Positions 405 to 61,922 of a stretch of DNA of 64,000 bases are shown in pieces (position 1 is the stretch's first letter; each line of letters begins with the position of its first letter). Below the pieces are notes generated by a model that was not told the origin of the DNA, ran no database searches, and saw only the letters and a list, made by a program, of their open reading frames with translations. Source of the DNA: a bacterium. GTDB lineage: Bacteria; Acidobacteriota; Blastocatellia; HR10. The stretch is taken from contig JBEPZV010000001.1 in NCBI GenBank assembly GCA_041640655.1, positions 1 to 64,000 on the forward strand, given 5' to 3'. The translations under genes and the position numbers were made by a program.

Positions 405-912
405 GAAAGCGAAAAATGTAAAACACGCGAAAATTCGCCCGCCTCCTAACCTATTGAACACCAATAACTTCACAATCCCGCCTCAAGCCCCCGAAAATCA
501 TCCCGATTCTTTTTGCCCCTGTCACACAAAACAAAACTTCTCACGACCTTCCCAAAACGCCCGCCGCCGAAGAGGGACCCCTTTGGCCAGGGCTCCCCAC
601 GTGCGGATGCCAAGCGCGGTCTCCAAATCGTGTGGGAACCCCGAGGGCAAGAATCAAGTGCTTGTTCTGGTGTTTTCTCCAAGTCAAAGGTGTGGATGGC
701 GGGGTGGTCACTTTCAGACTTTTGCTTTATCGGACGTAGATTGCCCAATGAGCCGAACCCTACGCTCGCCCATCATTTTACCCATCCCCCCACACCCGGA
801 CGACCATTTTTTCACAATATCTTGTGAAATTCTTTCCCCCTTCCCACGGCCCCAACAGGCCACGACCTCCCTCATCGCCGAATCGCCCGCTCCTCCGCCC
901 GCCTGCCGCTCC

Positions 913-950
913 GGGCACCCCACACGCTCTCCAGATCGCATGGGAACCCC
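913..950. repeat. REP-like palindromic element copy (degenerate; another at ~590-642)
   Basis: gggcaccccacacgctctccagatcgcatgggaacccc matches the reverse complement of the family consensus GGGGTCCCCAYGCGATC..GATCGCRTGGGGTGCCC. Confidence 0.75.
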
Positions 951-1357
951 GCTCACTCCCGAATCCGAAAAATCTCCCCTACATTCCTTCCCACGCTCGC
1001 CAAATTTCGCATCCTTCCTTCTCCGGCTCCGGCCCCCCTTTCCTGTTTAGGGTTATCATGCGTTGGCTCAGAGCGACAGTTGCCTTCAGGATAGCTGTGG
1101 CACCCCTTCAGGGCTCGATGGCTCGGGCGCTCATCGGTCGTGATGCGCTGCACGACCCGACTCACCATCTCCCTGCCCGGAACCGTGGGGGTCAAAAAAT
1201 TTCGCATGGCGTGGCCCCCTTTTGGCCGAAATTGCACATTACTAAACAGAGACGACATGGTGGGGAAGCCGTTGGTCGCGAGACCGATTCCACCGAAGTG
1301 AAACCCGGCGGCCGGTGAGCTTCCACCGTCGCCTCAAAAAGACCAAAAGGAGGACCT

Positions 1358-2440
1358 ATGAAAAAGCAAGCGTTCAGGATTTTCACGATGTTGAGTTTGT
1401 TCGTTACACTGATGGGTGGGGATACGCCACTCCGCGCCGGCAAAAACACCGTCGAGCTTAGCCGCATCGCTTGGGCTGGGCCCACTGCCGCGAAACCTCA
1501 AGAGCTACCCCGCGCCATTGGTACGCTCTGGGTGACGAACACCACCACGAACGACGTGGCCGTGTTCGACGCGGCCACGGGCAACCTCATCACCACCATT
1601 GCGGTGGGAACGAGGCCGATTGGAATTCAGGCTCCCCCTGACACGGGGAAGGTCTACGTGGCCAACGAGCGCAGCAACACAGTCTCGGTCATTTCGAAAT
1701 CGAGCCTGAGCGTTGTGGCCACGATCCCGACAGGCCCGTTGCCTCATCACACGGCTCAGAGTCCGGACGGGAAGTTCGTCTATGTGGCGGAGTTTGGCAC
1801 TAACAAAATTGGTGTCATTGATACAGCGACAGATACGCTGGTCGCAGAGTTTGTGACCGGTCCGCCAGAGGCCCGAACCCATGCCCCCTGGGTAACACAA
1901 GACGGGCAGACGCTTCTAGCAGCAAACCAAGGGGTCAACCAAGTCGCGGCTCTGGACGCTCGCACCGGAGCAATCAAATGGACTCTCAACGTGGGCAATA
2001 CTCCCAGCGATATCGTCACATTACCCAACGGCAAGATCGGCTTCGTGACTTTACAAGGAGAGGATAAGGTGAAGCTCTTGGACCTCGAAACGCCGGCCAT
2101 CCTGGGTGAAATCGGAGTGGGCCCACGGCCGACAACGATGCAGCTCTCGCCGACGGGCCGTTGGTTGGTCGTATCACACGGTGGGAGCCCGGCACAGAGC
2201 GCGATCATTGACCTTCTCGAAGCTCGTTCCGTGAGTCTCATGATGTTGAGTGGAACAGGAACCCAGCACAACGCGATGTCCCAGAGCGGCCGCTTCTCGT
2301 ATGTGGCAGTCGTAGGGGGAGCGGCGCCTGGGGTCGCCGTCATCGATATGACTACGCAGGCTGTGGTGGCCTCCTACGCCTATCCCGGCGGGGGGGCTCC
2401 ACATGGAGTCTTCTACGAGCCGGCTCAGCTCTGTCGGTAG
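1358..2440 (+). CDS. Secreted YncE/YVTN-family beta-propeller protein
   Basis: AGGAGG RBS, signal peptide, repeated YVAN/YVAE...SPDGK blades. Confidence 0.85.
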   Translation: MKKQAFRIFTMLSLFVTLMGGDTPLRAGKNTVELSRIAWAGPTAAKPQELPRAIGTLWVTNTTTNDVAVFDAATGNLITTIAVGTRPIGIQAPPDTGKVYVANERSNTVSVISKSSLSVVATIPTGPLPHHTAQSPDGKFVYVAEFGTNKIGVIDTATDTLVAEFVTGPPEARTHAPWVTQDGQTLLAANQGVNQVAALDARTGAIKWTLNVGNTPSDIVTLPNGKIGFVTLQGEDKVKLLDLETPAILGEIGVGPRPTTMQLSPTGRWLVVSHGGSPAQSAIIDLLEARSVSLMMLSGTGTQHNAMSQSGRFSYVAVVGGAAPGVAVIDMTTQAVVASYAYPGGGAPHGVFYEPAQLCR

Positions 2441-2551
2441 AGACGGCGCCATGTCCTGATGCCCTTCCGGGGAAGCGGGAAGTCGCCTGAGCTGCGTTGT
2501 TCTCTCTGAGACTCAGATCATCAACGAAGAGCACGCGGAGACAGCCACCTC

Positions 2552-9388: not shown

Positions 9389-10408
9389 CTACGGGTGCGA
9401 GTGAGTAGCCAAACCTTCGTGCGTGTGCTCTGCTATACAATGGTGTTCTTCCCCTGAGTGATTCGTCGGGTCAACATGAATAGTGACATTCGAAAGGTAG
9501 GGCAAGTGACGCAGGAGTTGATGTCTGACTTCGACTGCAATTGCGTGCCCTTCGACAACCGACAGTTCGGGACTTACGGCAAGATTGACTTCGGCGTACA
9601 AACGATGACCTGACCAGCGCGCCCGCACCTCGGTAACATCGCGTACACCTTGCGTATGATTCACGGCGTGTCTAATCGCATCAATCACTTCAGGGTCAAC
9701 TCAGTCCACCAAGCGGGTAAGAACTGCCTTCCCCGACTTCCAAACAATGCCCAGTATAGCAATTGTGATGAGCAAGCCTACAATTGGGTCTGCTGAGGGA
9801 TAACCGAGCCAGACACCCACTGAGCCGAGCAACACCCCTAAACTGGTCAAGCCATCTACACGGGCATGGTAACCATCTGCAACCAGAGCGGTGCTGTTGA
9901 TTTGTTTACCTACCCGAATGCGGAAATCCGCCACGAGCTCATTGCCTGCGAAACCAATAATGGAGGCAACGACAACAGCCCACAGATGCTGAACGGGTTG
10001 GGGATGCAAAAGACGGTCAACCGATTGATACCCTGCGACAACCGCGCTGAGTAAGATGGTCAGTACGATGATAACTCCCACTACGTCTTCCACACGCCCA
10101 TAACCGTAAGTGAAACGGCGGGAGGGTTGTCGCCGCGCCAGGGTAAACGCAAGCCATAGAGGAAGTGCTGTTGTCGCGCCGCCAAAATTGTGTATCGTGT
10201 CGGCAAGCAGCGCCACGCTACCCGAAAAGAAGACGATGACCACCTGAAATACAGCCGTAGCAGCCAAGCCGATGAGAGACCATTTGACAGCCCAAATGCC
10301 ACGCTGAGTGGTGAGCAGTGCTGGGTCGATTGTGCCGTGCGTGTGATTATGCGTATCGTGATGGCCGTGAGACTGGTCATTTGTGTGCCAGTGTCTGCGA
10401 TTGAACAT
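9389..10408 (-). pseudogene. Cation diffusion facilitator (CDF) metal transporter cassette with in-frame TGA at 9701-9703
   Basis: His-rich N-terminus, SVALLADTIHN, ADGYHARVD; the frame continues RLVD*VDPEVI into the C-terminal dimerisation domain. Confidence 0.85.
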
Positions 10409-10596: not shown

Positions 10597-11733
10597 TCAC
10601 AAGGCATCGACCGGACTTTTCACACCTCTCCCACCCCGGTTCAGCACATAGGTATAGACCATCGTCGTCCGCACGTCTTTGTGTCCAAGAAGCTCTTGCA
10701 CGGTGCGAATGTCATAGCCGGCCTCTATCAAGTGCGTGGCAAATGAATGCCTCAGCGTGTGGCACGTCGCTCGCTTGGTCAGCCCTGCCTTCTCAACTGC
10801 CTGCTTGAACGCCTTTTGTAAGATGGACTCATCAACGTGATGGCGCCCTTCGTCACCTGTCCTCAGGTTCCTCCATCTGTTCTCTTGCGGAAACACCCAC
10901 TGCCAACGCCACTCGCGAGAAGCGTTCGGGTACTTCCGGGCCAGCGCATCGGGCAGCGGGACTTGACCCCAACCATCGGCAAGGTCTTTCTCATGCACTG
11001 CTTTCACCTTGTGCAGATGTTCTTTGAGCGTTTTCTTCAGCGAGTCCGGTAATATCGTTACCCGGTCTTTGGCGCCTTTCCCGTCTCGGACAAGAATCTC
11101 GTTGCGAGCGACGTCAATATCCTGCACGCGCAACCGTAGACACTCTATCAAGCGCAAACCTGCACCGTACATCAGCGACGCCATCAGCCGCTTGTCGCCC
11201 TGAAGGTGGCCGAGCACTGCCTTGACTTCCTCGCGTGTCAGAACAACTGGCAACCGCTTCGGCCTACGGGCGCGAACTACATCGCCAAGCTCGCCAACCT
11301 CGCATCCAAGCACGTAGCGGTACAGGAACAGCAAAGCCGAGAATGCCTGATTTTGTGTCGAGCTGCTGACATGTTCTTTCAAGGCAAGATGAGACAGAAA
11401 TGCGTTGATCTCCGGCCCGCCCATCTCGGCCGGATGGCGCACCTTGTGGAAGAAGATGAATCGCTTGATCCACATTACATAGACATCTTCCGTTCGGCGG
11501 CTGTAATGCCGCGCTCGCAATGCCTGGCGCACCTGTTCGAGCCGCCGGGAGTTCGGCGCACGCACAGAGGAAGCCGGACCTTTGACAGACGTCGGCGTGC
11601 CCACCAGGCGTGATCTCGAAGTCCAAGCCCTCAACTCTGCGACCTTCGGCTCCAGCACGGGAACGCTCCCTCCCCGCCCTGCTTTCACTCTACAGGTCGC
11701 CGCCAGTATATCACCGACCGACCCGCACATCAA
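10597..11733 (-). CDS. intI: Integron integrase copy A (start uncertain)
   Basis: YGAGLR, GKGAKDR, IntI-specific patch [38 protein letters not shown]. Confidence 0.95.
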
Positions 11734-11907
11734 CCCCTTCTCACACCCCCGACGACGGCCATCGAATCCGCCCGAACGGCCCCGCCGATAATGGCGAGCA
11801 TGGGCCAGTGCTCGCGCCGCACTCGGCCATCGCCCCGATGAGGTCGAGGTCTTTTCTCTCCCACGCCGTCCACCACCGGTGGACGGCGGCCAGGGGCGTC
11901 TCGGCAT

Positions 11908-14446: not shown

Positions 14447-15583
14447 TCACGAAGAATCAATTGGGCTTTTTACGCCGCGACCACCTCGGTTTAACACGTG
14501 CGTATAGATCATCGTAGTTCGTACATCACTGTGTCCTAAAAGCTCTTGAACCGTACGAATGTCGTACCCATCTTCCAGCAAGTGCGTTGCAAATGAATGC
14601 CGCAGCGTATGACACGTTGCTCGCTTGGTTAATCCCGCTTTGGTGACCGCTTGTTTGAACGCCTTTTGCACGATGGACTCATCAACGTGGTGCCGCCCTT
14701 GCTCAACAGTTTTGGGATTCGCCCACCGATGCTCTTGCGGAAACACCCACTGCCAACGCCACTCGCGAGAAGCGTTCGGGTACTTCCGGGCCAGCGCATC
14801 GGGCAGCGGGACTTGACCCCAACCATCGGCAAGGTCTTTCTCATGCACTGCTTTCACCTTGTGCAGATGTTCTTTGAGCGTTTTCTTCAGCGAGTCCGGT
14901 AATATCGTTACCCGGTCTTTGGCGCCTTTCCCGTCTCGGACAAGAATCTCGTTGCGAGCGACGTCAATATCCTGCACGCGCAACCGTAGACACTCTATCA
15001 AGCGCAAACCTGCACCGTACATCAGCGACGCCATCAGCCGCTTGTCGCCCTGAAGGTGGCCGAGCACTGCCTTGACTTCCTCGCGTGTCAGAACAACTGG
15101 CAACCGCTTCGGCCTACGGGCGCGAACTACATCGCCAAGCTCGCCAACCTCGCATCCAAGCACGTAGCGGTACAGGAACAGCAAAGCCGAGAATGCCTGA
15201 TTTTGTGTCGAGCTGCTGACATGTTCTTTCAAGGCAAGATGAGACAGAAATGCGTTGATCTCCGGCCCGCCCATCTCGGCCGGATGGCGCACCTTGTGGA
15301 AGAAGATGAATCGCTTGATCCACATTACATAGACATCTTCCGTTCGGCGGCTGTAATGCCGCGCTCGCAATGCCTGGCGCACCTGTTCGAGCCGCCGGGA
15401 GTTCGGCGCACGCACAGAGGAAGCCGGACCTTTGACAGACGTCGGCGTGCCCACCAGGCGTGATCTCGAAGTCCAAGCCCTCAACTCTGCGACCTTCGGC
15501 TCCAGCACGGGAACGCTCCCTCCCCGCCCTGCTTTCACTCTACAGGTCGCCGCCAGTATATCACCGACCGACCCGCACATCAA
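14447..15583 (-). CDS. intI: Integron integrase copy B (start uncertain)
   Basis: Same motifs as copy A; ends [10 protein letters not shown]...LLGH...YTHVLN. Confidence 0.95.
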
Positions 15584-21134: not shown

Positions 21135-21740
21135 GTGCTCCTCCCCATGGAGAGATCATAGAGGGGCCTGGGGCTTTCGCCTCGCCCATCATGGTACTCG
21201 TACGCATGAGAGCCTTCGATGTCATTCCACCTCGATGACTGAGCGATCACCGCTCGTCGCGGGCCGACAGCCCAAACGGCAGCCCTTCGCCGCGCGGCCG
21301 ATTTGAAACCGAGAAGGAGATCGTCTCAGGGCGCCGCTCCCCCTCAATTTCAAGGTCTCCCTCCGTCCCTGACCAACAGGCGAGATACCCAATCGCCGAA
21401 CATAGCACACCTGTTACGTGAAAAGTGCCGATGAAGTTCCCTTGAGACTTCGGCACGCGGTCGCTCGTGCGGTGCCCAGGCCGGCGCGCGCACTCCGATG
21501 CGAAGACCCCGCAACTCCCATGTGTATCAAACCCACATAACCTCACCCGCCCATCGTCAGCCCCATCCCCGCCAATCAATGCGGCATGGAAACCGTCACT
21601 CACCTCGTCAAGCCACCTCCAGAAACGGGGCCGTTTTACCTTCGGTTCCGGAAAATTTCCGGCTCAACATTTCGATCGGGGAGAACAGACCGCCGTCCGA
21701 CGTGAGTCCGTCGGGCGAGCGGCCCTCTCCCCGCCGCAGA

Positions 21741-22085
21741 TCACTCGATGGCGACCGATGCGACCTTGATCGTATCGCCCTGACGGTCTCCGGTCACCGT
21801 CACGCGAATGGAGTCTTTCTTCTTCGTCTTCTTGAGGGCATCGAGAGCCTGTCGGTTCCCGGCCTCGTCAAACTTCAAGTAGGTGCCGTCGGACGTGAGA
21901 ATGCCATAGCCGCTCTTGGAGCACTGGATGAGGCACTCGGTGGGATGCTTGTCGGGATTCGCCTTGACCTTGGTCAGGCACATGGTGTCAATGAGCGGAA
22001 CACTCTTCCACGTCTCGGCCCGGACGAGAGCCGGAACCGTTAACCCCAACAGGATAAGCAGCAGCGTTCTGGCCAGCTTTTTCAT
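21741..22085 (-). CDS. Small secreted hypothetical protein
   Basis: AGGAGG RBS, signal peptide, D..C...H..EC..QC..SGYG. Confidence 0.7.
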   Translation of the reverse strand: MKKLARTLLLILLGLTVPALVRAETWKSVPLIDTMCLTKVKANPDKHPTECLIQCSKSGYGILTSDGTYLKFDEAGNRQALDALKKTKKKDSIRVTVTGDRQGDTIKVASVAIE

Positions 22086-22193
22086 ACGCGTTCCTCCTGT
22101 GAAAACAGTTTTGACATCGCGCACGTTCGCGGCGTGCGCGCTCGTGTTCAAGGCCTGTCAGACGAGTGATCCCGTCCATGGTCGAGACGGCTC

Positions 22194-22619
22194 TCACGTT
22201 CCTGCCGAAGCCGGTCCGGTGGCTTCTGTGGGTGCGGCGGCCTGTCGGACCTCGGTCAGACGGGCGAGAGCGTAAGCGGCCACCGCCATGACCAGATCGC
22301 GCACGGCCACGTCGAAGAACATTCCCGTGGACACAAGGTTCACGGCGATGACCGCGAGCCAGCCCATGGCGGCGTAACTGCCCAGGCGCGTCCAGCGCGT
22401 GAGAATGGCCAGACCCACGATCATCTCCACGACGCCGACAAATGACAGGAACACGCCTGGCGAAACAGGCAGCAGACGTTCGACCCAGGGGCTCAGGTAC
22501 ATCTCCCACTGGGTGAGAAGGTTGAAGAACTTATCCAGACCGGCAAGAAAGGCCGCCGCGCCCAGACCGATTTTCAGTCCCCACCACGCGGAGTTGAGTT
22601 TCTCGTCCCGTGCGGTCAT
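22194..22619 (-). CDS. DoxX family membrane protein
   Basis: AGLDKFFNLL..W..YL; GVVEMIVG; DVAVRD. Confidence 0.82.
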   Translation of the reverse strand: MTARDEKLNSAWWGLKIGLGAAAFLAGLDKFFNLLTQWEMYLSPWVERLLPVSPGVFLSFVGVVEMIVGLAILTRWTRLGSYAAMGWLAVIAVNLVSTGMFFDVAVRDLVMAVAAYALARLTEVRQAAAPTEATGPASAGT

Positions 22620-22730
22620 ACTCGTATCCTGCAGCATATAGAGTGAGCGGGTGCCCTTCGGGTTACAGAACGAGGAACGGAAAAACCTTGTAACCTTTCT
22701 GAGCCCGGTGACTCAGTAAAAGGAGCAACA

Positions 22731-23519
22731 ATGGCTACCGACGATATGACCGTGTCCTCGACCGCGGCTTCGCTCACCGACGAAGAAATCGTCGAGCGCG
22801 TGCGGGCGGGCGAGGCGGCGCTCTTTGAAGTTCTCATGCGTCGGTACAATCAGCGGCTCTATCGGGTGGCGCGGGCCATTCTGGGCGATGACAGCGAAGC
22901 CGAAGACGTCATGCAGGAGGCGTATGTGCGCGCCTATCAGCATCTGGATCAATTCACCGGCGCCGCCCGGTTCTCCACCTGGTTGACCAAGATCGCCGTC
23001 TACGAAGCCCGAGCGCGGGTCCGCCAACGGCGCCGCTTTGTCGAAATCGGCGACGTGACCGATCACCAGAATTTCACGGGGAGCGCGACGAAAATGGCCG
23101 GACGTGATCCCGAGCAACACGTTCTGGAGCGCGAGCTGCAGGCTCTGCTCGAAGCGGCTATTGAAGCCTTGCCCCCGTTGTACCGCTCGGTCTTCATGCT
23201 GCGAGAGGTGGAAGGGATGAGTACGGCGGAGACGGCGGCCTGTTTGGGCCTCGGCGAAGACGCCGTGAAAGTTCGATTGCACCGGGCGCGGGCACGACTG
23301 CGCAAATTTCTCTCCGACCGACTAAGAGCGAAAACGACTCAGACGTTTCCTTTTGGTGGGGCACGCTGTGACCGAGTGGTCTCGCGAGTCTTTGAGCGGA
23401 TCCGAACCCTCGGGGTCCCCCGGAAGAGTTCATCCAACGCCACATCATGCCGGGGTCCCCACGTGGGGTCCCCATGCGATGATCGCATGAGGCGCCCGAG
23501 CGCCCTCCCCGAAGACTAA
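22731..23519 (+). CDS. ECF RNA polymerase sigma factor; tail runs through REP-like repeats
   Basis: RRYNQRLYR, AEDVMQEAY, FSTWLTKI, VKVRLHRAR, F.FGG.RCD. Confidence 0.9.
   Translation: MATDDMTVSSTAASLTDEEIVERVRAGEAALFEVLMRRYNQRLYRVARAILGDDSEAEDVMQEAYVRAYQHLDQFTGAARFSTWLTKIAVYEARARVRQRRRFVEIGDVTDHQNFTGSATKMAGRDPEQHVLERELQALLEAAIEALPPLYRSVFMLREVEGMSTAETAACLGLGEDAVKVRLHRARARLRKFLSDRLRAKTTQTFPFGGARCDRVVSRVFERIRTLGVPRKSSSNATSCRGPHVGSPCDDRMRRPSALPED
23412..23497. repeat. Cluster of REP-like element copies/half-copies
   Basis: ggggtcccc x3; ggggtccccatgcgatgatcgcatgaggcgccc. Confidence 0.75.
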
Positions 23520-27910: not shown

Positions 27911-28683
27911 TATGACTCCCCCTGGAGGCGAAATCTGTAAAAGACTTTACATTCGCTCGCTCGCCGGAGCGGCGGCGCTGCCCCCCGCCTCGAACCGATC
28001 GGACGGAGTCCCCCTTGCCTTCTATAGATCACCCAGGGGGCTCGCTCTATTCCGACTCCGATTTATCATGATCGCCACGCGATCTATAGATCACGTGGGA
28101 GGCCTGGCAGCCGGTCCCTATTGTCTGACGATGAAGGCGAACCTCGCAGACGCTCAAGCCTCCGCTCGGCGTCCGAAAAATCTTCGGCCCACTCGCAGCA
28201 TGAGCAGACAGCAGTGGGAATAAAGGGGATGACAACGGGGTTCCCGACGACCTCTGCGGTGGGTCTTGCGCGAGACTCGAAATCTACCGGACGATCTCGC
28301 GCGCGGCGTCACGATCCACGATCCAGAGGAGTTTGCCCTGAGTCGGGGCGATCAACTGCGCCGGGAGCCTGTCAGGCCGGTCTTCGCCCAGGAGAACTTC
28401 CCTCAGGACGGCGGCTTTCCTCTCTCCGGAGACCAGGAAGATCACGTTGGCCGCGTGATTGAAAACGGCCGCCGTGAGCGTCAGGCGTGACGCACCGAGC
28501 TTTTCCACATAGACGGCTCGCACCATCTCCCTCCGCTCAGAGAGCACAGCCGTGCCCGGGAAAAGAGAGGCCGTGTGTCCGTCTTCTCCCAGGCCGAGCA
28601 GAACGAGATCGAACGCAGGGAGCTCACAGGCAGCAAGCCCGAAGAACGCTCTGAGTGTATGAGCGTACTCGACGGCGGCCTCT

Positions 28684-30021: not shown

Positions 30022-30215
30022 CGAGATCGCCTCCAATCGGCGGACAAGACCCGAGCATAGAGCATCGTGCGCCCCCCTCCGGAGATGGCTCTTCCACCAA
30101 GATGGTCCCCGTTGGGAGCTGACGGGCGGGGACGGGAAGCTTGCCCGCTCTGAACCACCGCCCCGGCGGTGATATAGCTCACTCCTTGCTTCCGAGCCCA
30201 GTCGGAGAGTTTCAT
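30012..30215 (-). pseudogene. tnpA: IS607 serine transposase, frameshifted and internally deleted
   Basis: MKLSDWARKQGVSY / WFRAGKLP..ARQLPTGTILV / LYARVLS, then the sequence jumps to tnpB. Confidence 0.82.
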
Positions 30216-30473
30216 GGCTGAAATCGCTGATAACAAAAACGGTAACTGCTGTCAACCCTCGACCAGATCACCCGCTCCCGAAAAGGAGGACTCGCCAGGC
30301 GAGCATATAGTCCCTGCGGGGTTGCGCCTCCGGAGAGAGCGACGCAAAAGCGCCCATTCCGGATGATGAACTCTTCGGCCAACTCGACCAAACGCATCGC
30401 CGCCCGAAAGGCGAGCTCTTCGGCATCCCGGCAGATGAGCAGTTCTCCACGCCGGAGCTCTCTCTTTATGATC

Positions 30474-37382: not shown

Positions 37383-38132
37383 TCAGTTTGCCTGAGACCG
37401 TCGAACACCGATAGCAATGATGATCTTCCCCGGAGTGTAGGTCGTGCCGTTGACCGAGACCTGACGACCGCCCGCGAGTCGGGCCCAACCGCGAATGAGC
37501 GTGATGTTGGGATAGACATCCATCACGTTGATGTATTTGCCCTGCCGCAGTGCCGCCACCAACTCATCCTTCTGCTCGATGACGCGCCGCCAATCCGACG
37601 GCGGCGGGCAGGCGGTGAGTCCTTCGAATTTCGGATAGGCGGAGCGGTAGCAGAGCTCCGCCGCTTTGATCAATGTCTTCGAGGGCACGCAGCCGATGTT
37701 CACACAAGTGCCGCCGATGGTGCCGCCCTCGACAATGGCCACGTTCGCGCCCAACTCTGCGCCTTTGATCGCGGCCGCAAACGCCGCCGACCCGCCGCCG
37801 ATGATCATGAGATCGTAATCGGCGCCTTCCGGCTTCGGTGCTCGACGCTCCCCTTCCACCGGGGTCCCCATGCGATCTATAGATCGCATGGGGTGCCCGA
37901 GTGGTCGTCGTTCGCGCACCAGCGCGCGATAGCCCGCGTCTCTGACGGCGCTCATCAACGCTTCATCAGCGACCGCCGTTTCAGCGATGACCGTGGCGTG
38001 CCCCGAGCGCCAGCCGGGCACGTGAGCTTCCACACCCCCCATGACGCCCTTCAACGCCTCGGTCACATGCCGGGCGCAACCGTCGCAGGTCATCCCTTCA
38101 ATGCGTAAAGTGAGATGTGTTCTTTCCGTCAT
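37383..38132 (-). pseudogene. merA: Mercuric reductase, truncated (HMA domain plus N-terminal FAD domain only); REP insert at 37861-37898
   Basis: GMTCDGC; GGGSAAFAAA; GGTCVNIGCVPSK; stops just after KIIIAIG. Confidence 0.85.
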
Positions 38133-38145
38133 TTTACCGACCTCC

Positions 38146-39198
38146 TCAGGTCTGATTTTCTTCAGAAACATAGCCTGCACATCCATCACCAGAAGTTCTC
38201 GCATCCGCAAACCATGCGGCGGTTGGCGCAGTGACCGGCTGGACTCGTCGCTTGGCTACGGCTGAGAAAACAATCAAACTCGGAATTTCCAGCACCGGCT
38301 CGATCAACTGGCTGAGAGCCACGACCGGATGCGCGGGAAACAAGACGACCGCCAGCGGCAGCGCCAGCGGCGAGTTCCGCGCCGTGGTCGTACAGGCCAG
38401 GGCGATGAACCTCTCTCGTGGATAATGCAGCCACCGGGACACGAGCCAGGACAAAGAGAAGGAGATCAGATAGAAGCTCAGCATGGGTGGTCCCATCCTC
38501 AGAAAGAGGGTCGGGCGCTTCAGCACGATCTCCCCATGGCTGGTGAACATCGCCATCACAGTCAGCGCCAGCGCCGCAAAACCGAGCCGAGTTAGCCGCC
38601 CGGACACGGCCACCCGCGGACGACGCCAGCGCACGAGTTGCGCGGCCACAAGCGGAATCGCCACATACAGGGCGAAAGCCCGCGCCAACGTGCTCAGGTC
38701 CACCGGCATCAGGGTTTGCGTGAAGACCAACAAGTAGACCGGCAGCAAGACGAGTTGGAGAATCAGATTCCATGGCAACAGCGCCAGATTGCGGTGCACG
38801 TCGCCCCCGGCCAAGTCGGTGAAGATCAGGTACCAATCAGTGCAGGGAGTAATGAGCGCCAGCACCAGTCCCACCCAGAGCGCCGGCTCATCCCGCAGGA
38901 ACACCCAGCCCAAGCAAAAGGCAATGAGCGGCGTACTCACAAAGTTCAATCCCACCGCCGTCAAAAGGTAGCGCCAATCGCGGGCGGCCTCCCGGAGCCG
39001 TCCCAGTGACACGCGGGCGAAGAGCGTAAACAACACAACCATCAAAAAAGGCGTAATGAGTCGTTGAGCTCCATCTTCCGCTCCAGGTAGCCACACGGCC
39101 AAGCCCACGCCAACGGCTGCCGCGCCCAGCAAGACTGCTGGTTCAGCCAGATCTCGCACAAGGTGAGAGAGCATGATCGCCTCATTCCGTTGTTTCAT
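38146..39198 (-). CDS. acr3: ACR3-family arsenite/bile-acid:Na symporter
   Basis: LNFV.TPL, TPCTDW, ARNSPLAL, LEIP. Confidence 0.85.
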   Translation of the reverse strand: MKQRNEAIMLSHLVRDLAEPAVLLGAAAVGVGLAVWLPGAEDGAQRLITPFLMVVLFTLFARVSLGRLREAARDWRYLLTAVGLNFVSTPLIAFCLGWVFLRDEPALWVGLVLALITPCTDWYLIFTDLAGGDVHRNLALLPWNLILQLVLLPVYLLVFTQTLMPVDLSTLARAFALYVAIPLVAAQLVRWRRPRVAVSGRLTRLGFAALALTVMAMFTSHGEIVLKRPTLFLRMGPPMLSFYLISFSLSWLVSRWLHYPRERFIALACTTTARNSPLALPLAVVLFPAHPVVALSQLIEPVLEIPSLIVFSAVAKRRVQPVTAPTAAWFADARTSGDGCAGYVSEENQT

Positions 39199-44127: not shown

Positions 44128-45012
44128 TCACGGTTGAACCGCGCGCACCGCTCCGACTTTGTAGCCGAGCCGGTCAATCGCGGCTTTGAGCTGCTCCGCA
44201 TTGACTTTCGCCGGATCGTACTCAACCACGGCTTGACCTTTTTCATAGCTCGCCTCTACGGACTTGACGCCCGGCAACCGCGTGAGCGCTTGCTCGACGT
44301 TCACCGCACAGCCGGCGCAGTCCATGCCACGAATTTCGATCGTCGCGCGAGCCAGAACGGGCACGTCTTGCGGATGGCGGTTTGTGGCGGTGGTGAATGG
44401 CGCGCTCGCTGCCGAGGTTTTGGCGGCTGAGCCCGCACTCCGAAGAGCCTCTCCGTTCGCTTTCGATGCGGAGCCCGATCGCGCAACGGCATCTCGCGCC
44501 GATTCGGCCGCCAGCGCGGGCGAGTCGGTTTGAGGAGGTTGGGATGGCGCTCGCTCAACAGGTTCCGCCCCCGTCAGCTTGTTCGTTTGTGACTGCAAAT
44601 CGCCTGCCGGATCAGTGTCGGGCGCCCCATGGGAACCCCGTATCGCCTGCGTCTTCTGCTTGGGTGAGAGGAGCGCCCAGACCGCCCCGGAGTAATACGG
44701 AAACGCGGCGAAGGCGATGACAAGACCCGTGGCCAGCCACAGCAGGATCTTATTCCACCGACCCACCGACGGGCGCGTCGCGCACACGCTCCCATCGGCG
44801 CAATGTACTTCCTGCTTGCGATAGGTGAAGTAAAACCCCAGCCCGAGCAGACCGAAAGTCAGCGCCAGCAGATAGGGCCGCCAGGCCTCGAACACGGCCG
44901 CCGCGCCGAAACTCCCCAACCCGGCGACCGCAGCCACAATCGGCCCCAGGCAGCAAAGCGACGCCGTAATGGCCGCCATCACGGATGCGACGAGCGTTGT
45001 CTCTCTTTTCAT
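44128..45012 (-). CDS. merT: MerT-HMA (MerP-like) fusion
   Basis: ASLCCLGP, WRPY, C.DG.VC, FPYY; C-terminal GMDCAGC. Confidence 0.88.
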   Translation of the reverse strand: MKRETTLVASVMAAITASLCCLGPIVAAVAGLGSFGAAAVFEAWRPYLLALTFGLLGLGFYFTYRKQEVHCADGSVCATRPSVGRWNKILLWLATGLVIAFAAFPYYSGAVWALLSPKQKTQAIRGSHGAPDTDPAGDLQSQTNKLTGAEPVERAPSQPPQTDSPALAAESARDAVARSGSASKANGEALRSAGSAAKTSAASAPFTTATNRHPQDVPVLARATIEIRGMDCAGCAVNVEQALTRLPGVKSVEASYEKGQAVVEYDPAKVNAEQLKAAIDRLGYKVGAVRAVQP

Positions 45013-45029
45013 GGTTTGTACCCTCCATT

Positions 45030-45496
45030 GCTTGTTCGTTGAGAGAAGCCCCGAAGAAAATGCTCGATGACCGGACAGGCTTTGTTGTCGGCGATAGCCC
45101 ACTCGCAGGTGGCTTCGTATCCCGCCAACTCGCGCCTCCGTCGGGGGTGAGCGCAGCATATCGGCGGTGCCGATCCTCAAGTTCCCTCGTTCGCCACCTA
45201 TGAGAGCAGTGATCCGAGTCCGTCGGCTCGGCCCCGACCGGCGCGCCGATTTCCTCCAGCGTGAACCCGAATCTCCTGACCCGCTCGATCAAGGTGATCC
45301 GTTCGATCACGCGCGGGCACTCCACGCGATTCGGAGATCGCGTGGGGACCCCGTTCGGATCAAAGAGACGATAGCCGCTCCGGCTCCGCGCCGCTTGAGG
45401 CCACAAGCCCCGTTGCTCAGAGCAACAGAGCCCGCCCCGGCTGACGCCGCTTCGCGCCTCCACCTCGCCGATCTTGAGCCCGGCCTTGTCCGTCAT
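45030..45496 (-). pseudogene. Degenerate MerR-family regulator with REP insert at 45315-45352
   Basis: LKIGEV...SGYRLFDP[14 aa]RVIER...GFTLEEI, then frameshifted relative to paralog 49851-50291. Confidence 0.78.
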
Positions 45497-45548: not shown

Positions 45549-45574
45549 GGGCCTTTTGGACGAGACCGACCCTC

Positions 45575-45689
45575 GGGGTTCCCACGCGATCCCTCCGATC
45601 GCGTAGGGTGCTCCCGGCGTGTGTCCGGTTCTCATGCTCCAAAGGGACGACGTGATGGAGTACCCATCTCTAGATCGCCTGGGGTGCCC
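45575..45689. repeat. Two REP-like element copies
   Basis: ggggttcccacgcgatc..gatcgcgtagggtgctc and ...ctagatcgcctggggtgccc. Confidence 0.72.
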
Positions 45690-48952: not shown

Positions 48953-49801
48953 TCACAGGACGGCCTTGAAGCCGGTCCTGTTGATCGCGTCGGCCACCTG
49001 CTCGAGCGTGACGCGTGCCGGATCGAACGTCACGACGGCGTGCTTCTTCTCGACACTGACCTCTACAGCCTTCACCCCATCGCGCCGCATGAGCGCCTGC
49101 CGGACCGACGCCGCACACCCGGCACAGGTCATCCCTTCGACGGGAATGGTCGCCGTCACGGCCTCGATCGTGAAGCCGGCTTCCTTGACCGCCTCCACAA
49201 GCTTTTCTAACCGGATCCGCTCGGGATCGTACTCGACCAGGGCTTCGCCCTTTTCGTAGCTGGCCGTCGCCGAGCGCACTCCGGGAAGAGCTCCAAGCGC
49301 CGACTCCAGAGCGGCCGCGCACCCGCCGCAGGTCATGCCGCCGACTTCCAGCCGCACGGGGTCCCCACGCGATCCGGAGATCGCGTGGGGTGCCCGCACG
49401 CTTATCGGCCGCTCGACCGCAGCCGATGCGACCGATCCCCCTTGCTCCTTCGACGGACCGTTCAACGCCGCCCAGAATCGCCCGGAATAATAGGGAAACG
49501 CGGCAAAGAGCACGATCACGACCGTAGCGATCCACAGGATCGTCTTCTGCCATCGCGAGGCCTTCCTGGTCGCGCATGCCCCATCGGCGCACGCCGCCTC
49601 TTTCCGGCGATAGGTGAGATAAAACGCCGCCGCCAGCAGCGCGAACGTCACGACGAGCAAATAGGGTCGCCACGCCTCGAAGGCGGCCGCCGCGCCGAAA
49701 CTCCCCAACCCCACGACCGCAGCTACAATCGGCCCCAAGCAACAGAGCGAAGCCGTGATCGCCCCAATGAGCGAAGCTCCAAGTGCGATCTTCTCCCTCA
49801 T
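48953..49801 (-). CDS. merT: MerT-HMA-HMA fusion (REP insert at 49358-49395)
   Basis: ASLCCLGP; GMTCGGC and GMTCAGC. Confidence 0.9.
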   Translation of the reverse strand: MREKIALGASLIGAITASLCCLGPIVAAVVGLGSFGAAAAFEAWRPYLLVVTFALLAAAFYLTYRRKEAACADGACATRKASRWQKTILWIATVVIVLFAAFPYYSGRFWAALNGPSKEQGGSVASAAVERPISVRAPHAISGSRGDPVRLEVGGMTCGGCAAALESALGALPGVRSATASYEKGEALVEYDPERIRLEKLVEAVKEAGFTIEAVTATIPVEGMTCAGCAASVRQALMRRDGVKAVEVSVEKKHAVVTFDPARVTLEQVADAINRTGFKAVL

Positions 49802-49850
49802 CGTCCCTCCTTTCACACGGGGGTCCCCATGGGGCGCCCCCGACATCCCT

Positions 49851-50291
49851 TCACTCCCGTTTCCGCCCCCGCCGGGGCTTTGACGCGCGAGAGGAAGGGT
49901 GAAGAAAATCCTCGATGACCGGACAGCTCTTCCGCCCGGCGACGGCGCGCTCGCACTCGGCCTTATAGGCCGAGAGCTCGCGACGCAATCGTTTGATCTC
50001 CTCGTACCGCCGATCGAGATCCTCGAGCTTGCGCGCGATCACCTGCAGAACCTCCGCGCACGTCCGCGGTTCGGCCGTCGGTAATTGGAGCAATTGTTTG
50101 ATCTCCTCGAGCGTGAAGCCGAAGCTCTGCGCCCGCTTGATGAAGCGCAGGCGCTCGATCACGCGCGGATCGTACAGCCGATACCCGCTCTGCGTCCGAG
50201 CAGCTCTCGGCAAAAGCCCCAACCGTTCGTAGTAGCGGAGCGTATCCACGCTCACGCCACATTCGGTGGCCACCTGGCCGATCTTCAACAC
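49851..50291 (-). CDS. Heavy-metal MerR-family regulator
   Basis: LKIGQVA..TLRYYE..GYRLY..GFTLEEI; C...C..CP metal ligands. Confidence 0.92.
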   Translation of the reverse strand: MLKIGQVATECGVSVDTLRYYERLGLLPRAARTQSGYRLYDPRVIERLRFIKRAQSFGFTLEEIKQLLQLPTAEPRTCAEVLQVIARKLEDLDRRYEEIKRLRRELSAYKAECERAVAGRKSCPVIEDFLHPSSRASKPRRGRKRE

Positions 50292-50325
50292 CGCCGCTTC
50301 CCCTCCGCTCGTTTTCACAACCGCC

Positions 50326-50357
50326 AGTATAAACCCTGGACCTATCTCCAGAGTCAA
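50326..50357 (-). promoter_or_regulatory. MerR/ZntR-type promoter-operator
   Basis: TTGACT-20 bp-TATACT, dyad CTGGA..TCCAG. Confidence 0.85.
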
Positions 50358-56715: not shown

Positions 56716-57828
56716 ATGATCGTGACGCTTCGACGATTCGGCCGGCTGACCGCGCCGCTTGTCGCTCTGTTGACGATGGGACTTATGAGCGCTGCTTCTC
56801 AGTTCCAGAAAGACAAACTCTTTGTCGTCACCCAATTTCCCCCGGAGTTGAACGATCCGGAGTTCATCCCCGCCACCCATCCCGACGGTGGCTACCTGGA
56901 TGACACCGAGACGGTGATGGGCATTGCGCTCGAGGGAGAGAGCCGGGCCTATCCGCTCCGGATCATGGCCTATCATCATGTGGTCAATGACGTCGTCAGG
57001 GGCCGCCCCATCGTCCTGGCCTACTGACCGGTCTGCGGGACGGGAGTCGGGTTCGACTCCGTGACACAGCAGGGGAGGCGGCTCATGTTTAAGCCGCACG
57101 GATTGTACAACGCCGAACTCGTGTTCGCCGACACCGAGACGGGAAGCGTCTGGTCGCTGACGAGCGGCGAGGCGATGGAGGGTCCGCTCGCAGGCCAAAG
57201 ACTCAACAAACTCGCGGTCGTGCAGACAACCTGGGCGAAGTGGAAACAGCTCCATCCCGACACGCTGATCGTTTCCAACCGGACGCCCCATCAAGCCCAC
57301 TACAAGCCGTTTCGCTGGCAGCCGCGCCAGCTCAGCTCCGTTTTCGAGCGCACGCTCACGCATCGAGATGAGCGACTGGGAAGAATGGAGCTGGTCCTGG
57401 CGGTGGCCCTGGGCGATGAACGCAAAGCCTATCCCTTATCCACGCTCAAGCAAGCGGGCGGCGTGGTGAACGATGTCGTCGGCGGCGTGCCGATCGTCGT
57501 CTTCTACGATCCACAGACGAACACCGCCGCCGCTTACGAGCGCAAGCTGGGCAAACGGGTGCTCCGCTTCGAGAACGCAGATCGGCAGGGCGAACGGGCA
57601 CCCCACGCGACCTCCAGTTCGCGTGGGGACCCCATACGGCTCGAGGCGGTGGATACGGCGACGCGTTCCCGGTGGAACCTGGCCGGTCGCGCCGAGTCGG
57701 GCCGACTGCGCGGCGAGCAACTTGCAGCCGTGCCGGCTCACACGGGAGCCTGGTACGCCTGGGCCGCCTACTTCCCGGATACGAAGATTTACACCTCGGC
57801 CGCTCGTCAAAGGGAGCGCCAGAAGTAG
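56716..57828 (+). CDS. Putative selenoprotein: DUF3179 protein, UPVC (Sec codon 57025-57027); REP insert at 57596-57633
   Basis: RAYP...HHVVND..PIVLAY-TGA-PVCGTG continues in frame into ORF 57061-57828; hairpin 57043-57060. Confidence 0.87.
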
Positions 57829-57844
57829 AGGCATATGACTGCGC

Positions 57845-57882
57845 GGGGTCCCCATGCGATCTATAGATCGCATGGGGTGCCC
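57845..57882. repeat. REP-like element (identical to 37861-37898)
   Basis: ggggtccccatgcgatctatagatcgcatggggtgccc. Confidence 0.9.
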
Positions 57883-58520: not shown

Positions 58521-58559
58521 GAGTGCCCCATGCGATCTCCGAATCGCATGAGGATCCCC
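58521..58559. repeat. REP-like element
   Basis: gagtgccccatgcgatctccgaatcgcatgaggatcccc. Confidence 0.75.
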
Positions 58560-58637
58560 GTGCGGTTTCTCCGCCGAAAGCCGGGGCGTGAGTCCTTTCG
58601 ACAGCATTTTCAGCAACCCCATGGTGGGAGGTCAACG

Positions 58638-59642
58638 ATGAAGACATCGGTTCTGATTGCCGCTCTCTGTTTCATGATGGGTCCGGGCGGGCTCATCGCG
58701 TTCGTTCAAGAGAAACAATACCTCGATGCGGGTCCGGGCCAGCGCCCGTTCGACGTCACCAAGCGCTCGGTTCCGCTCGAAGACATTCAAGGCGGCGGAC
58801 CGCCTAAAGACGGCATCCCGGCTCTCGACTCGCCCACATTCGTCTCGGCTCGCGAGGCCGAAAAATTCCTGCGTCCTTGGGATCGCGTCTTAGGCGTTTC
58901 GCTCGCCGGCGCGGCCAAAGCCTACCCGATCAAGATTCTCAACTGGCACGAGATCGTCAACGATCAGGTTGGGGATCGGCCCATTCTCGTCACCTGGTGA
59001 CCGCTCTGCAGTTCGGGCGTCGTGTACGACCCGATCATTGACGGCAAGCGATTCACCTTCGGCGTGTCGGGCAAGCTCTACAAGGCGGCTCTGGTCATGT
59101 ACGACCGCCAGACCGAGAGCCTCTGGTCGCAGCTCATGCAAGAAGCCATCGCCGGCCCGATGACAGGAGCGAAGCTCGCCATCCTGCCGAGCCTCCACAC
59201 GACGTGGGAGCACTGGCGGGCGCAACATCCTCAGACGCTCGTCCTCTCGCCCGAGACGGGATTCCGCCGCGATTACGGCTTGAATCCCTATCAAGAATAC
59301 TGGGAGATGGGCCAGCCGCCCCGTTTCCGGCGCCCGCCCAAAGAGAAGAAGTCGGATGTCAAACTCAGGCCCATGGAGCGCGTGCTCGGCCTCTCAGTGG
59401 ACGGCGTGAAGAAGGCCTATCCCTTCTCCGTGTTGAAGAAGAAGCCCGAGCGATTTGAGGATCATGTCAGCGGGAAGAAGGTCATCATCCACTTCGACAA
59501 AAAATCGGAGACCGGATACGTCACCGATGAGCGTGGGATTCTCATCCCTTCGATCGCGCTCTTCTGGTTCGCGTGGAGCGATTTTTATCCCGATACGGAG
59601 GTCTACGGCGAGGAGCCGTCACAGCAACAGCCGGTCCGCTGA
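58638..59642 (+). CDS. Putative selenoprotein: DUF3179 protein, UPLC (Sec codon 58998-59000)
   Basis: GGPPKDGIPA, KAYP..WHEIVND..ILVTW-TGA-PLCSSG..FGVSGKLY; hairpin 59013-59034. Confidence 0.9.
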
Positions 59643-59766
59643 CATCCGGTAGGCCGCCCTGAAGAGGGCCTCCGGCTCACAGGGACGCGGGCGCAGCCGC
59701 CGCGCCTTCATCGAGCTGTCATCTTTGCGTGCAGGCATCATATCCCTTGGGAGGATCTCGCACGAA

Positions 59767-60230
59767 TCAACGACGCCCTGCCCTCGAATCTGCCCACGCC
59801 GTTGGCGCGATGACCGTCACGGCCAAATCGCTCGGCGCAGGCATCCCGCTGCGCGGATCAATGATGTGAGCGATGCGCCGACCGGCCACTCGCGTCGCGT
59901 TCTCACATACGAATCGGAAGAGCCAATGGCCATATCGCTCAGCGCGAGCGTCAAGGCCATGCGCTCGGGCCGGGCCGGATCCCTCACGGAGACGCGCCAA
60001 GGACGATCATCCGGCCCCTTCCCCAGAGCGTAGATCGAGCTTTCGCCGAAGTTGATGAAGGCTCGCGCATGCCCCCGGGCGCGCGCGGCGCTACAGCCCC
60101 CGACGGAACATCGTCTCTCGCGACCGGCGCGATCTCAGGCGCTTGGCGTCGCCGACGCTTCACCGCGCCCCCAGCGATCTCCACGAGGCCGGCGATTTCT
60201 TCGTCTCCACCTCCGCTCACCTCCTCGGAA
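59767..60230 (-). pseudogene. apbE: ApbE (FAD:protein FMN transferase) remnants
   Basis: HIIDPRSG.P...VTVIAPTA..AD and FINFGESSIYALG found in different frames. Confidence 0.6.
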
Positions 60231-60649
60231 AATAACCACGGATGCACACGGATCAACACGGATGGCTCCTGTGGAAATGTGGCACGGGCGTCCCGCCTGT
60301 GTGCCATTTTCATCGTGTGTGGCGTGCATTCGCACATGAGCGATTCCTGAGGGAGAAATAGCGCGACACCCGGGCGACAAGCAGCGGATGATTTGCTCCC
60401 GATGGGCCGATCCATGAGAGACGCCCTCGGCCGCGTCACCTCTCGACCCGCTCGACCTCCGCCTCCTCACCCGGCTGTCCCCTGCGCTGTCGGCGGTGAG
60501 ATCCCCTGCGCACCAATACTGCACCCACGACGAGCCGATGGAGCCAGGCACTCACGGTCACCCCGCTCTCGCCCGCCGTGGGGTCACCGGACGAGGGTTG
60601 ATCAGGACTCACACGGTCAAAAGCCGGAGGCGACGACGGTCATGCCGTC

Positions 60650-61036
60650 TCACTTGAGATCCGACTCGACGCGCAATCCATCGAGAAACTTGTTGATCCC
60701 CATGAAGAGATCCACGACGGCGAGGGCCTCCAGCAATTCTTCAGTGGAAACACCCATTCGTCGCAATCCCGCCGTATGAGCGTTGATACAGTATTCGCAG
60801 TTATTGACGGTGGAGACGGCCAGGGCCAGAAACTCTTTCGTCTTCGGGTCCAGCTTGCCCGGCCCCATGATCACTTTGAAACGATTCCAGCTCGCTTCGA
60901 GATAGGCTGGATGATTCGCCATCGCTCTGAAGAGATTCGGGACAAAAGGCAAATTAAAGGTGCGCTTGATGTCATCAAAAATGTCTTTCACCTTCCCTGT
61001 TGCTTGCTGTTCAGAAGTCAAAGGTACTGTTGCCAT
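60650..61036 (-). CDS. AhpD-like peroxidase/CMD protein
   Basis: VPNLFRAMA, KE.LALAVS..NNCEYCINAH. Confidence 0.88.
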   Translation of the reverse strand: MATVPLTSEQQATGKVKDIFDDIKRTFNLPFVPNLFRAMANHPAYLEASWNRFKVIMGPGKLDPKTKEFLALAVSTVNNCEYCINAHTAGLRRMGVSTEELLEALAVVDLFMGINKFLDGLRVESDLK

Positions 61037-61190
61037 TTTGTTCCTCCATGAGTTTTTGATCAGATTCCTGCATGCGTGAAGATGGTACCCGCTGGCCCGA
61101 AGAGCTTAAGTAGTCAGGGTTACAGAACGCTTCCTCTCCCTTCGGCTAAGCTACACCCTGTGATGACCACGCCGAAAGGAGAGCAAAGTC

Positions 61191-61922
61191 ATGAGAAACA
61201 CCTGGCCTCAGATTGATCTGCCTGCAGGCTTGGGCACCGCCGAGGGGCTCACGGCAATCAATGGGATCATCTCCGGGCGACGGTACGCCAGCGGTCAGAT
61301 AATTTACAATGTCGGCGATAAGGCTGACGCGCTCCACATCATCGAAGAAGGGCAGGTGACGTTATCGGTCTTCTCTCTCGACGGCAAGGAAAAGATTCTG
61401 GAGATCCTCCACCACGGCGACATTTTCGGCGAGATGTTTCTCGACGAGAAGGACCGAGGCCAACAGCAAGCGCGAGCCATCACCGATGTGCTTGTGTCAA
61501 TAGTGACTCGCCGCGCCTTTCTGGAACTTTGCCGGCACACTCCCCACGGGGTCCCCAGGCGATCTATAGATCGCCTGGGGGGCCCGCAGGTGGTGGCGGC
61601 CCTTATGGGGGCGCTCATGAAACGGCTCCGAAACTTGCAAAGAGAGGTAGAGGATTTGGCCTTCTCCACCGCGCGAGAACGGTTCATCAAGTGGCTGGGC
61701 AAGTTGTGCGATGAATACGAGACCACGAAAGACCGTGACCCCCAGACGTGCATTGTGCGATTTTCCCAGGATGAACTGGCCCATCTGCTGGGCTTGACCC
61801 GCGAACGCGTGAATGCGCTGATACAGGAATTTAAGGGCGAGGGACTGGTCCAGTCGCATTACGGCTACGTCACCGTGAATCGAGATCAACTCCAGCGTTA
61901 TTTGCACCAATATCTGGTCTGA
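61191..61922 (+). CDS. Crp/Fnr family regulator (paralog of 41303-42052; REP insert at 61548-61585)
   Basis: GDIFGE, EDLAFSTAR.RF, CIVRFSQDELA..LG.TRERVN. Confidence 0.9.
   Translation: MRNTWPQIDLPAGLGTAEGLTAINGIISGRRYASGQIIYNVGDKADALHIIEEGQVTLSVFSLDGKEKILEILHHGDIFGEMFLDEKDRGQQQARAITDVLVSIVTRRAFLELCRHTPHGVPRRSIDRLGGPQVVAALMGALMKRLRNLQREVEDLAFSTARERFIKWLGKLCDEYETTKDRDPQTCIVRFSQDELAHLLGLTRERVNALIQEFKGEGLVQSHYGYVTVNRDQLQRYLHQYLV

Follow-up and report, generated by a model that had tools for sequence, protein, structure and literature searches.

The DNA stretch analysed here comprises positions 1 to 64,000 of the forward strand of contig JBEPZV010000001.1 (assembly GCA_041640655.1; Acidobacteriota, Blastocatellia, HR10) and is referred to below as the window. 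Its Pfam content includes a zwf-opcA-pgl cluster, several mer-type metal modules, Crp-family regulators and extracytoplasmic function (ECF) sigma factors, as well as an outer-membrane barrel of the CarboxypepD_reg type and a Ser/Thr kinase with TPRs. The closest relatives of its OpcA, Crp and MerT proteins are found in uncultured Acidobacteriota and in the metagenome-assembled genomes (MAGs) bacterium HR08 and bacterium HR10, and a 2-kb stretch of the window is 89% identical to an HR08 contig, so the window is assigned to a relative of HR08 and HR10. Dispersed over its genes and intergenic regions is a short palindromic element, whose copies prove, by comparison with relatives, to be 42-nt insertions that add 14 codons to a gene. 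It is proposed here that this hairpin-forming mini-element is moved by an enzyme acting in trans.

The sequences compared were the window and the 2.5-kb flanks around 18 perfect-stem matches in other MAGs. With the motif of the original prediction and up to three mismatches, eight full copies were found in the window, whereas 100 dinucleotide-preserving shuffles contained none. Six degenerate copies were added by an nhmmer profile of these eight (E 4e-4 to 7e-7), and two 20-nt short forms are visible in the sequence, with weak nhmmer scores (E 0.2-1.9). The total is about 16 copies in 64 kb (8 full, 6 degenerate and 2 short forms), where about 17 had been estimated, and eleven of them lie between 44 and 62 kb. 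The eight full copies are as follows:

30776 to 30813, minus strand: full copy without mismatches in opcA (30474-31733, minus strand), sense, frame 0, encoding TGSPRDLSIAWGAR.
37861 to 37898, plus strand: full copy without mismatches, antisense in a truncated merA (37383-38210, minus strand), in the linker after the HMA domain, antisense frame 2, encoding GHPMRSIDRMGTP.
45315 to 45352, minus strand: copy with 2 mismatches in a decayed merR (44750-45496, minus strand), sense, frame 2, encoding GVPTRSPNRVECP.
49358 to 49395, plus strand: full copy without mismatches, antisense in merT-HMA-HMA (48953-49801/49846, minus strand), in the linker before the first HMA domain, antisense frame 1, encoding RAPHAISGSRGDP.
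57596 to 57633, minus strand: copy with 2 mismatches, antisense in a DUF3179 gene (56716-57828, plus strand), antisense frame 1, encoding RAPHATSSSRGDP.
61548 to 61585, plus strand: copy with 3 mismatches and a compensated G-C stem variant in crp (61191-61922, plus strand), between the cNMP-binding domain and the long helix, sense, frame 2, encoding GVPRRSIDRLGGP, also written (PH)GVPRRSIDRLGG.
57845 to 57882, plus strand: full copy, intergenic, 17 nt past the DUF3179 stop.
913 to 950, minus strand: copy with 3 mismatches; the region has no Pfam support and is probably non-coding.

The six copies originally named as lying in genes are all in frame, in open reading frames (ORFs) with Pfam support. 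Intergenic copies are conserved equally to the genic ones, and the copy at 57845-57882 is identical in 38 of 38 positions to the copy at 37861-37898 inside the merA fragment.

Empty sites were found in relatives of the five host genes for which comparisons were made. For Crp, 11 of the 17 non-self matches were aligned together with the in-window paralog, and all 12 relatives lack the insert, having exactly 14 residues fewer between LCRHT and PQVV; these include the closest one (P0122, 91% identity). For the protein with MerT and two HMA domains (MerT-HMA2), 14 proteins among the 120 matches listed were aligned, three of them from a paralogous family, and the 14 residues are found in none of the remaining 11 orthologs, with the exact gap in P0140 (90% identity), HR10 (91%), HR08 (74%) and eight others. 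The DUF3179 alignment included 106 of the best 150 representatives, those of 300-460 aa, and none of the 106 has the insert, its 13 columns holding no residue in 90 of them, one residue in 11 and two in 5. In merR, the two in-window paralogs are 14 residues shorter at the insert, and DNA comparison with merR 49851-50357 places the empty site at GATCCG^CGCGTG and puts the insert at exactly 42 nt. Both 14-residue gaps that the original prediction had described against in-window paralogs are therefore real. For OpcA, 11 homologs among the 120 matches listed were aligned and none carries the complete insert; the closest among the matches listed (P0002, 87% identity) lacks 10 aa and keeps T-G-A-R, a remnant that fits what a 30-nt deletion of the hairpin between its GGG runs would leave. 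No distant homolog with the same 14 residues was found in the Crp, MerT-HMA2, DUF3179 or OpcA sets.

Because they are absent from close orthologs, including Crp and MerT-HMA2 proteins with 90-91% identity, and from paralogs, the copies are insertions and not ancestral sequence, which bears out the prediction of a dispersed palindromic family. Judged from these alignments, some insertions are younger than the split from the relatives with 90-91% identity, and at least one, the OpcA insertion, is older and has since been trimmed. The family had also been described as active; this holds on an evolutionary timescale, given the presence and absence of copies between close relatives and the two identical copies, and does not extend to present-day activity.

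The anatomy of the unit was derived from 29 full copies with their flanks, from the window and the related loci (27 after dropping two redundant ones). The 42-nt insert consists of (N)AC, a 38-nt core GGGGTCCCCAYGCGATC-N4-GATCGCRTGGGGTGCCC and a final G. Since the base 5' of the core is mostly C (24/27) and the base 3' of it mostly G (20/27), the palindrome extends over 40 nt. Folded as single-stranded DNA, it has an outer stem of 4 bp, an internal loop of 2x2 (GT/TG), a stem of 12 bp and a loop of 4 nt, with energies of -14 to -22 kcal/mol and z-scores of -2.6 to -7.7; its orientation is defined solely by the internal loop and the variable apical loop. In the 40-nt hairpin, pair 12/29 shows compensated variation, being C-G in 24 copies, T-A in three, G-C in one and T-G in one (n=29); the other stem pairs are near-invariant and hence uninformative on structure. 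The two arms of 17-18 nt also qualify as terminal inverted repeats, as they trivially would in any palindrome. The hairpin has no T-run terminator.

The copies add 14 codons per insert and are read in different frames and on different strands, as the original prediction stated. The window copies use four of the six possible frames, and the other two are seen in ORFs of HR08. The same DNA consensus gives unrelated peptides, with recurrent forms such as GxPxRSxDRxGxP, RAPHAISxSRGDP and TGSPRDLxIAWGAR, which indicates that the conserved entity is the DNA and not the peptide. The consensus is stop-free in all six frames, and stops arise in two frames only, through CTATAG or CTAGAG loops in 5 of the 29 copies. 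This openness is unremarkable, and its reading as a special adaptation was rejected, because it is also found in 27% of shuffles and 51% of shuffled palindromes of the same composition, and in 14.5% of random 42-mers from the window. The frame is preserved because every defined insertion has the fixed length of 42 nt and because the element is G+C-rich. The decay forms found in coding sequence are also multiples of three (-18 nt at 44620 and an inferred -30 nt in P0002), in a tiny sample.

Outside the window, a scan with the exact 28-position stem pattern, with one genome per species and the window's own genome not among the matches, returned 18 distinct matches, all with the full 38-nt core. 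These include 11 in HR08, three in HR10, three in a Pseudomonadota MAG (SAR270) and one in a Thermoflexus MAG, whose lone contig may be the result of mis-binning. In HR08, in-frame copies encoding the same peptide types are present in an FG-GAP protein, a BatA-VWA protein (an adjacent pair), an M61 peptidase and a TPR/peptidase-MA protein (four copies), and other copies are near N-termini or intergenic. The TPR/peptidase-MA ORF with its four copies is part of a 5-kb region of HR08 contig BEHK01000124.1 (L016, 81-4710) with eight copies or part-copies; the remaining ones there are in overlapping ORFs without Pfam matches, which may not be genes. The Pseudomonadota MAG has three intergenic copies (L012, L013 and L018, at ~2430-2600 in each), with the core at the apex of a ~140-nt inverted repeat that folds at -68 kcal/mol (z -4.7). 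Perfect-stem copies number four in the 64-kb window and 11 in the whole HR08 MAG, the density in the window being either regional or the result of an expansion.

Among the six hosts, opcA, crp and merT-HMA2 appear to be intact genes. Of the merA host (37383-38210), an N-terminal fragment is present, with the HMA domain and ~140 aa of Pyr_redox_2, and in the merR host (44750-45496) the conserved RYYE motif has been lost and the scores stay under the Pfam cut-offs; both are probably dead genes. The DUF3179 host has an in-frame TGA (57025-57027), and its reading as a broken gene was rejected, since this TGA aligns with the first Cys of a CxxC motif, Cys in 100 of 106 homologs, and recurs at the same Cys in the paralogous DUF3179 gene (~58635-59642), each of the two TGAs being followed by a stem-loop. 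With the contexts Y-U-PVCGTG in the host (56716-57828) and W-U-PLCSSG in the paralog, both genes probably encode selenoproteins, as judged from sequence. DUF3179 with UxxC is listed as a selenoprotein family in a table of PMC9312934, and on this basis the host is counted as intact. In all four intact hosts the insert is located in a linker or variable loop. An AlphaFold2 model of Crp suggests a loop, with the insert in coil (pLDDT <50) between helices 107-115 and 131-175, in a weak model (mean pLDDT 62.8, 13-row alignment).

The flanks of the copies bear on how the element inserts. The CCGCAC direct repeat 42 nt apart at 49352/49394, noted in the original prediction, is real; the accompanying statement that coding inserts are followed by CCG is true and trivial, because CC is the end of the motif itself and the next base is G in 20 of the 27 non-redundant copies. 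The left flank is non-random over these copies (C in 24 at -1, A in 13 at -2, C in 18 at -5 and C in 14 at -6; binomial p 1e-9 to 0.02), the C enrichment having p=2e-4 at -5 and p=0.02 at -6. Matches between left and right flanks peak at an offset of 42 (80/162, against 39-61 at other offsets from 39 to 45), and exceed those obtained when flanks are re-paired between copies (mean 69.3 at offset 42; p=0.003, 6-mers); for 4-mer flanks, 3 of 27 are perfect against 0.49 expected (p=0.007). Perfect 6-mer repeats are present in two of the 27, W49358 (CCGCAC/CCGCAC) and L009 (CCGCCC/CCGCCC), and five of six bases match at W30776 and L016-4636, while about 20 of the 27 match in four or fewer. Two explanations fit these flanks: a true target duplication of 4-6 bp, or insertion after a CC(G) like the 3' end of the element itself, with (N)AC belonging to the element. 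On the sequence pattern, the second is favoured, because the right CCG is far better conserved than the left and the right CCC pairs with the left GGG within the hairpin; the empty sites, which end in CCG in merR, merT and DUF3179 and in CC(C/G) in crp, point in the same direction.

Insertion beside a short motif is known from IS200/IS605 elements, whose ends are imperfect hairpins without classical inverted ends and which insert beside a short specific sequence that is the cleavage site and are excised precisely. These elements have two different hairpins, at the left and right ends, and require TnpA. The element of the window resembles them in its imperfect hairpin and its CC(G)-rich insertion side and differs in having a single hairpin, and the only IS605-family element of the window has tnpB alone. 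Here it is proposed, with a probability of about 0.6, that the copies form a family of non-autonomous hairpin-forming mini-elements, each insertion being 42 nt, that are moved in trans as a folded single strand. The mobilising enzyme would be encoded elsewhere in the genome, would most likely be an HUH/Y1 transposase of the IS200/IS605-RAYT kind (RAYT, transposase associated with repetitive extragenic palindromes, REPs) and would cleave the target and the 3' end of the element alike after CC(G). Such cutting would account for the fixed length, the clean empty sites and a CC(G)-rich left flank that mimics a direct repeat spaced 42 nt apart. Once inserted, the element is tolerated in genes because 42 nt are 14 codons, because a G+C-rich palindrome is mostly stop-free, and because its Gly/Pro/Arg/Ser/Asp-rich peptides fall in linkers and loops; in-frame internal deletions (-18 nt, -30 nt) have arisen later.

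Several observations weigh against this proposal. A Pfam scan of ~96 window ORFs (all called genes plus the largest ORF per gap) and ~90 ORFs of the 18 loci revealed neither a Y1_Tnp/RAYT nor a DDE transposase, whether in the window or within the 2.5-kb flanks. The only transposon-type genes of the window are those of the tnpB-only IS605-family element and two tyrosine recombinases, none of them flanked by the motif, and nhmmer found no motif copy at the ends of the tnpB element (~28.7-30.2 kb). Also, no GTAG/CTAC or CGTC/GACG is present at a conserved position in the consensus and flanks of the 29 copies, the GTAG/CGTC tag being described in PMC3733652 as the mark of most RAYT-associated REPs. 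Additionally, two of the six hosts are the dead genes mentioned above, the empty sites of orthologs are seen at the protein level only, and the flank correlation (p=0.003) is also expected from true target duplication by a DDE-type transposon, or could be yielded by subfamily structure.

Such a DDE-type origin would make the element a very small MITE (a miniature transposable element with inverted repeats), whose arms are terminal inverted repeats for a DDE transposase encoded elsewhere and whose 36-38 nt plus a 4-6-bp duplication of a preferred target (~CCGCAC) give the 42 nt. The perfect flank repeats at W49358 and L009, the five matching bases at W30776 and L016-4636, and the offset-42 correlation, which beats permutation for both 6-mers and 4-mers, are as this explanation would have them. 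It is nevertheless unlikely, because a duplication should conserve both sides equally and the CCG is conserved unequally (right CC in 27-29 of 29 and G in 20/27, left bases in 14, 18 and 10 of 27), with the right CCC engaged in pairing with the left GGG inside the hairpin and most copies sharing at most four of six flank bases. The scanned ORFs hold neither a DDE transposase nor a parent insertion sequence with these ends, and 42 nt is far below the 70-300 bp given as usual for MITEs in PMC3733652.

The hairpin could also be no transposon at all, and instead a site of binding or processing (serving, for example, a regulator, a nucleoid or gyrase-like protein, an uptake signal or an RNA element), spread by recombination, gene conversion or repair capture and kept by selection. 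The 38-nt core hardly varies between MAGs that carry the labels of three phyla, it stands at the tip of the ~140-nt inverted repeat of the Pseudomonadota MAG as if it were itself the functional module, its copies are densely spaced in the metal-resistance section of the window, and one copy is at a synteny breakpoint with HR08. This explanation is judged improbable, because a clean 42-nt presence or absence in unrelated genes (crp, merT, merR, opcA and DUF3179, and FG-GAP, M61 and TPR genes in HR08) is the signature of insertion and not of evolution in situ or homologous exchange; the hairpin also lacks a T-run terminator, no Rfam family matched at gathering thresholds in the entire window, and positions in ORFs follow no consistent pattern with respect to promoters or gene ends. 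Selection of a functional 14-aa motif, with the DNA repeat as its by-product, can hardly be upheld. The peptides are indeed hydrophilic, loop-like and recurring in the same forms, but the same DNA gives unrelated peptides in four to six frames on both strands, intergenic copies are equally conserved (57845 being identical to 37861) and two hosts are dead. The proposal of a hairpin moved in trans can be carried one step further, as a speculative and rather doubtful extension: one hairpin may supply both cleavage sites, which would make it the smallest self-contained single-hairpin mobile unit described to date, with a length and composition adapted to genes, a core that passed between phyla (Acidobacteriota, Pseudomonadota and Chloroflexota) along with an enzyme, and a secondary use built into the ~140-nt palindrome of the Pseudomonadota MAG.

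In-frame palindromic repeats are established for the Rickettsia palindromic elements (RPEs) and for REPs of Opitutus, Thauera and others that carry GTAG/CGTC tags, as reported in PMC3733652, and in-frame repeat fusions in general are a subject of the review PMC3184786. The RPEs (Ogata et al. 2000, as cited in PMC3733652 and PMC3184786) are described there as in-frame palindromes in functional-looking genes, which orthologs lack, which add a peptide and which are found in intergenic positions as well; in-frame insertion into genes and absence from orthologs are likewise found here. Compared by size and host, the RPEs are ~105-146 nt long (table in PMC3184786) and the window element 42 nt with a single hairpin, and the RPE host is an obligate intracellular alpha-proteobacterium whereas the window belongs to a free-living thermophilic Acidobacteriota lineage (heat spring). 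The intragenic GTAG/CGTC REPs (Di Nocera, De Gregorio & Rocco 2013, PMC3733652) are, in that account, stem-loops of 20-40 nt occurring as singles and adjacent pairs, some of them in coding regions with extra amino acids in Opitutus terrae, Thauera and R. conorii. A short imperfect palindrome of this size range is present here in 8 full and 8 partial window copies and 18 perfect-stem copies in 4 MAGs; REPs are mostly extragenic according to PMC3733652, whereas 6 of the 8 full window copies are in Pfam-supported ORFs, in a small sample. The REPIN/RAYT system, as presented by Bertels & Rainey 2011 (PMC3116915), is alike in its short palindromes, presumed to be mobilised in trans by a single-copy HUH tyrosine transposase, and in its excision and deletion derivatives; REPINs are described as inverted REP doublets, whereas the copies here are singlets and two adjacent pairs in HR08 (L006 and L016) are in direct orientation. 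The original label of a REP/MITE-like family stands as a likeness and not as membership, given the missing GTAG/CGTC tag, the lack of a RAYT in the scanned ORFs and the ambiguous evidence for target duplication.

The family itself was not found in print: literature on palindromic elements, in-frame insertion and Acidobacteria gave general REP, RPE and MITE papers only, subscription-only papers being outside the coverage, and literature matches to four 12-nt stem words were papers on eukaryotes only. Similarly, blastn of one 44-nt copy against plasmid and phage collections returned no match. The hairpin family is, as far as this literature goes, an undescribed family within the known class of in-frame palindromic mini-elements, set apart from RPEs by size and host.

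The degenerate copies and short forms of the window are as follows:

615 to 644, minus strand: degenerate copy from the nhmmer profile (E 4e-4).
23464 to 23500, plus strand: degenerate copy with 5 nt of the loop region missing and a partial copy before it, making up the C-terminal tail of the sigma-70 ORF 22731-23519.
28075 to 28104, plus strand: degenerate copy, intergenic between patatin and the 3' part of pgl, with a half copy at ~28020-28040.
44620 to 44639, minus strand: short form lacking its central 18 nt, within the linker of merT-HMA 44128-45180.
45574 to 45611, plus strand: degenerate copy, intergenic, upstream of merR 44750-45496.
45666 to 45689, plus strand: right-arm half copy, intergenic.
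49820 to 49839, plus strand: short form in the interval from the likely true merT start (49801) to merR (49851-50357), probably in 5' untranslated sequence.
58526 to 58561, minus strand: degenerate copy upstream of the second DUF3179 gene (~58635-59642).

Both short forms had been said to keep the frame. This holds for 44620, which is -18 nt in a coding linker, the window protein being 10 aa longer than its HR10 ortholog at this point. It probably does not hold for 49820, which is likely to be non-coding since it is upstream of the likely true merT start, an ATG at 49801 that is preceded by AAGGAGG and agrees with orthologs beginning MREK. Near the degenerate copy at 23464-23500, the alignment with the HR08 contig (89% DNA identity; window 21486-23447, L011 2687-4658) ends within ~20 nt of the repeat, and HR08 has a full copy ~150 nt past its own side of the breakpoint, so that the repeat marks a rearrangement boundary. 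The copy at 28075 was considered as part of the tnpB element and rejected, because tnpB is inside the split pgl and the copy is outside the tnpB element. The 6-phosphogluconolactonase gene is divided into an N-terminal part at 30212-30484 (Pfam positions 2-60) and a C-terminal part at 28284-28757 (88-225), with the tnpB-only IS605-family element (28684-29967) between the two halves, at the end of the zwf-opcA-pgl cluster.

Other features of the window include a region from 37 to 62 kb that is dense in metal and redox modules, with three merR, two merT-HMA, a merA-like oxidoreductase, the merA fragment, a CopZ zinc-finger protein, two AhpD-like CMD genes, AhpC/TSA, DUF302 and an ACR3-like SBF gene. 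Several of these metal and redox families are known to include selenoproteins. A CDF cation-efflux gene (9389-10408, minus strand) also has an in-frame TGA (9701-9703, LVD*VDP), between the membrane and ZT_dimer domains, by nonsense mutation or recoding. The two tyrosine recombinases are paralogs (Phage_int_SAM_4 plus Phage_integrase; 10597-11907 and 14447-15583, minus strand) separated by 4 kb that include globin and SCO4226-like genes, possibly as part of a mobile or integron-like cassette region; no hairpin copy adjoins them.

How palindromic mini-elements in genes move and why proteins tolerate them are questions that this family serves with clean material, including natural filled and empty alleles of Crp and MerT-HMA2 at 90-91% identity, an insert fixed at 14 codons and decay forms that stay in frame, and its hairpin is short enough to be synthesised for cleavage assays. 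For annotation, such inserts lengthen proteins, split profile matches and may pass for lineage-specific loops. The occurrence of palindromic elements within genes is extended by this family to free-living thermophilic Acidobacteriota. If a single hairpin does supply both cleavage sites, each hop would add exactly 14 codons, and the length and composition of the element would be adaptations to life inside genes.

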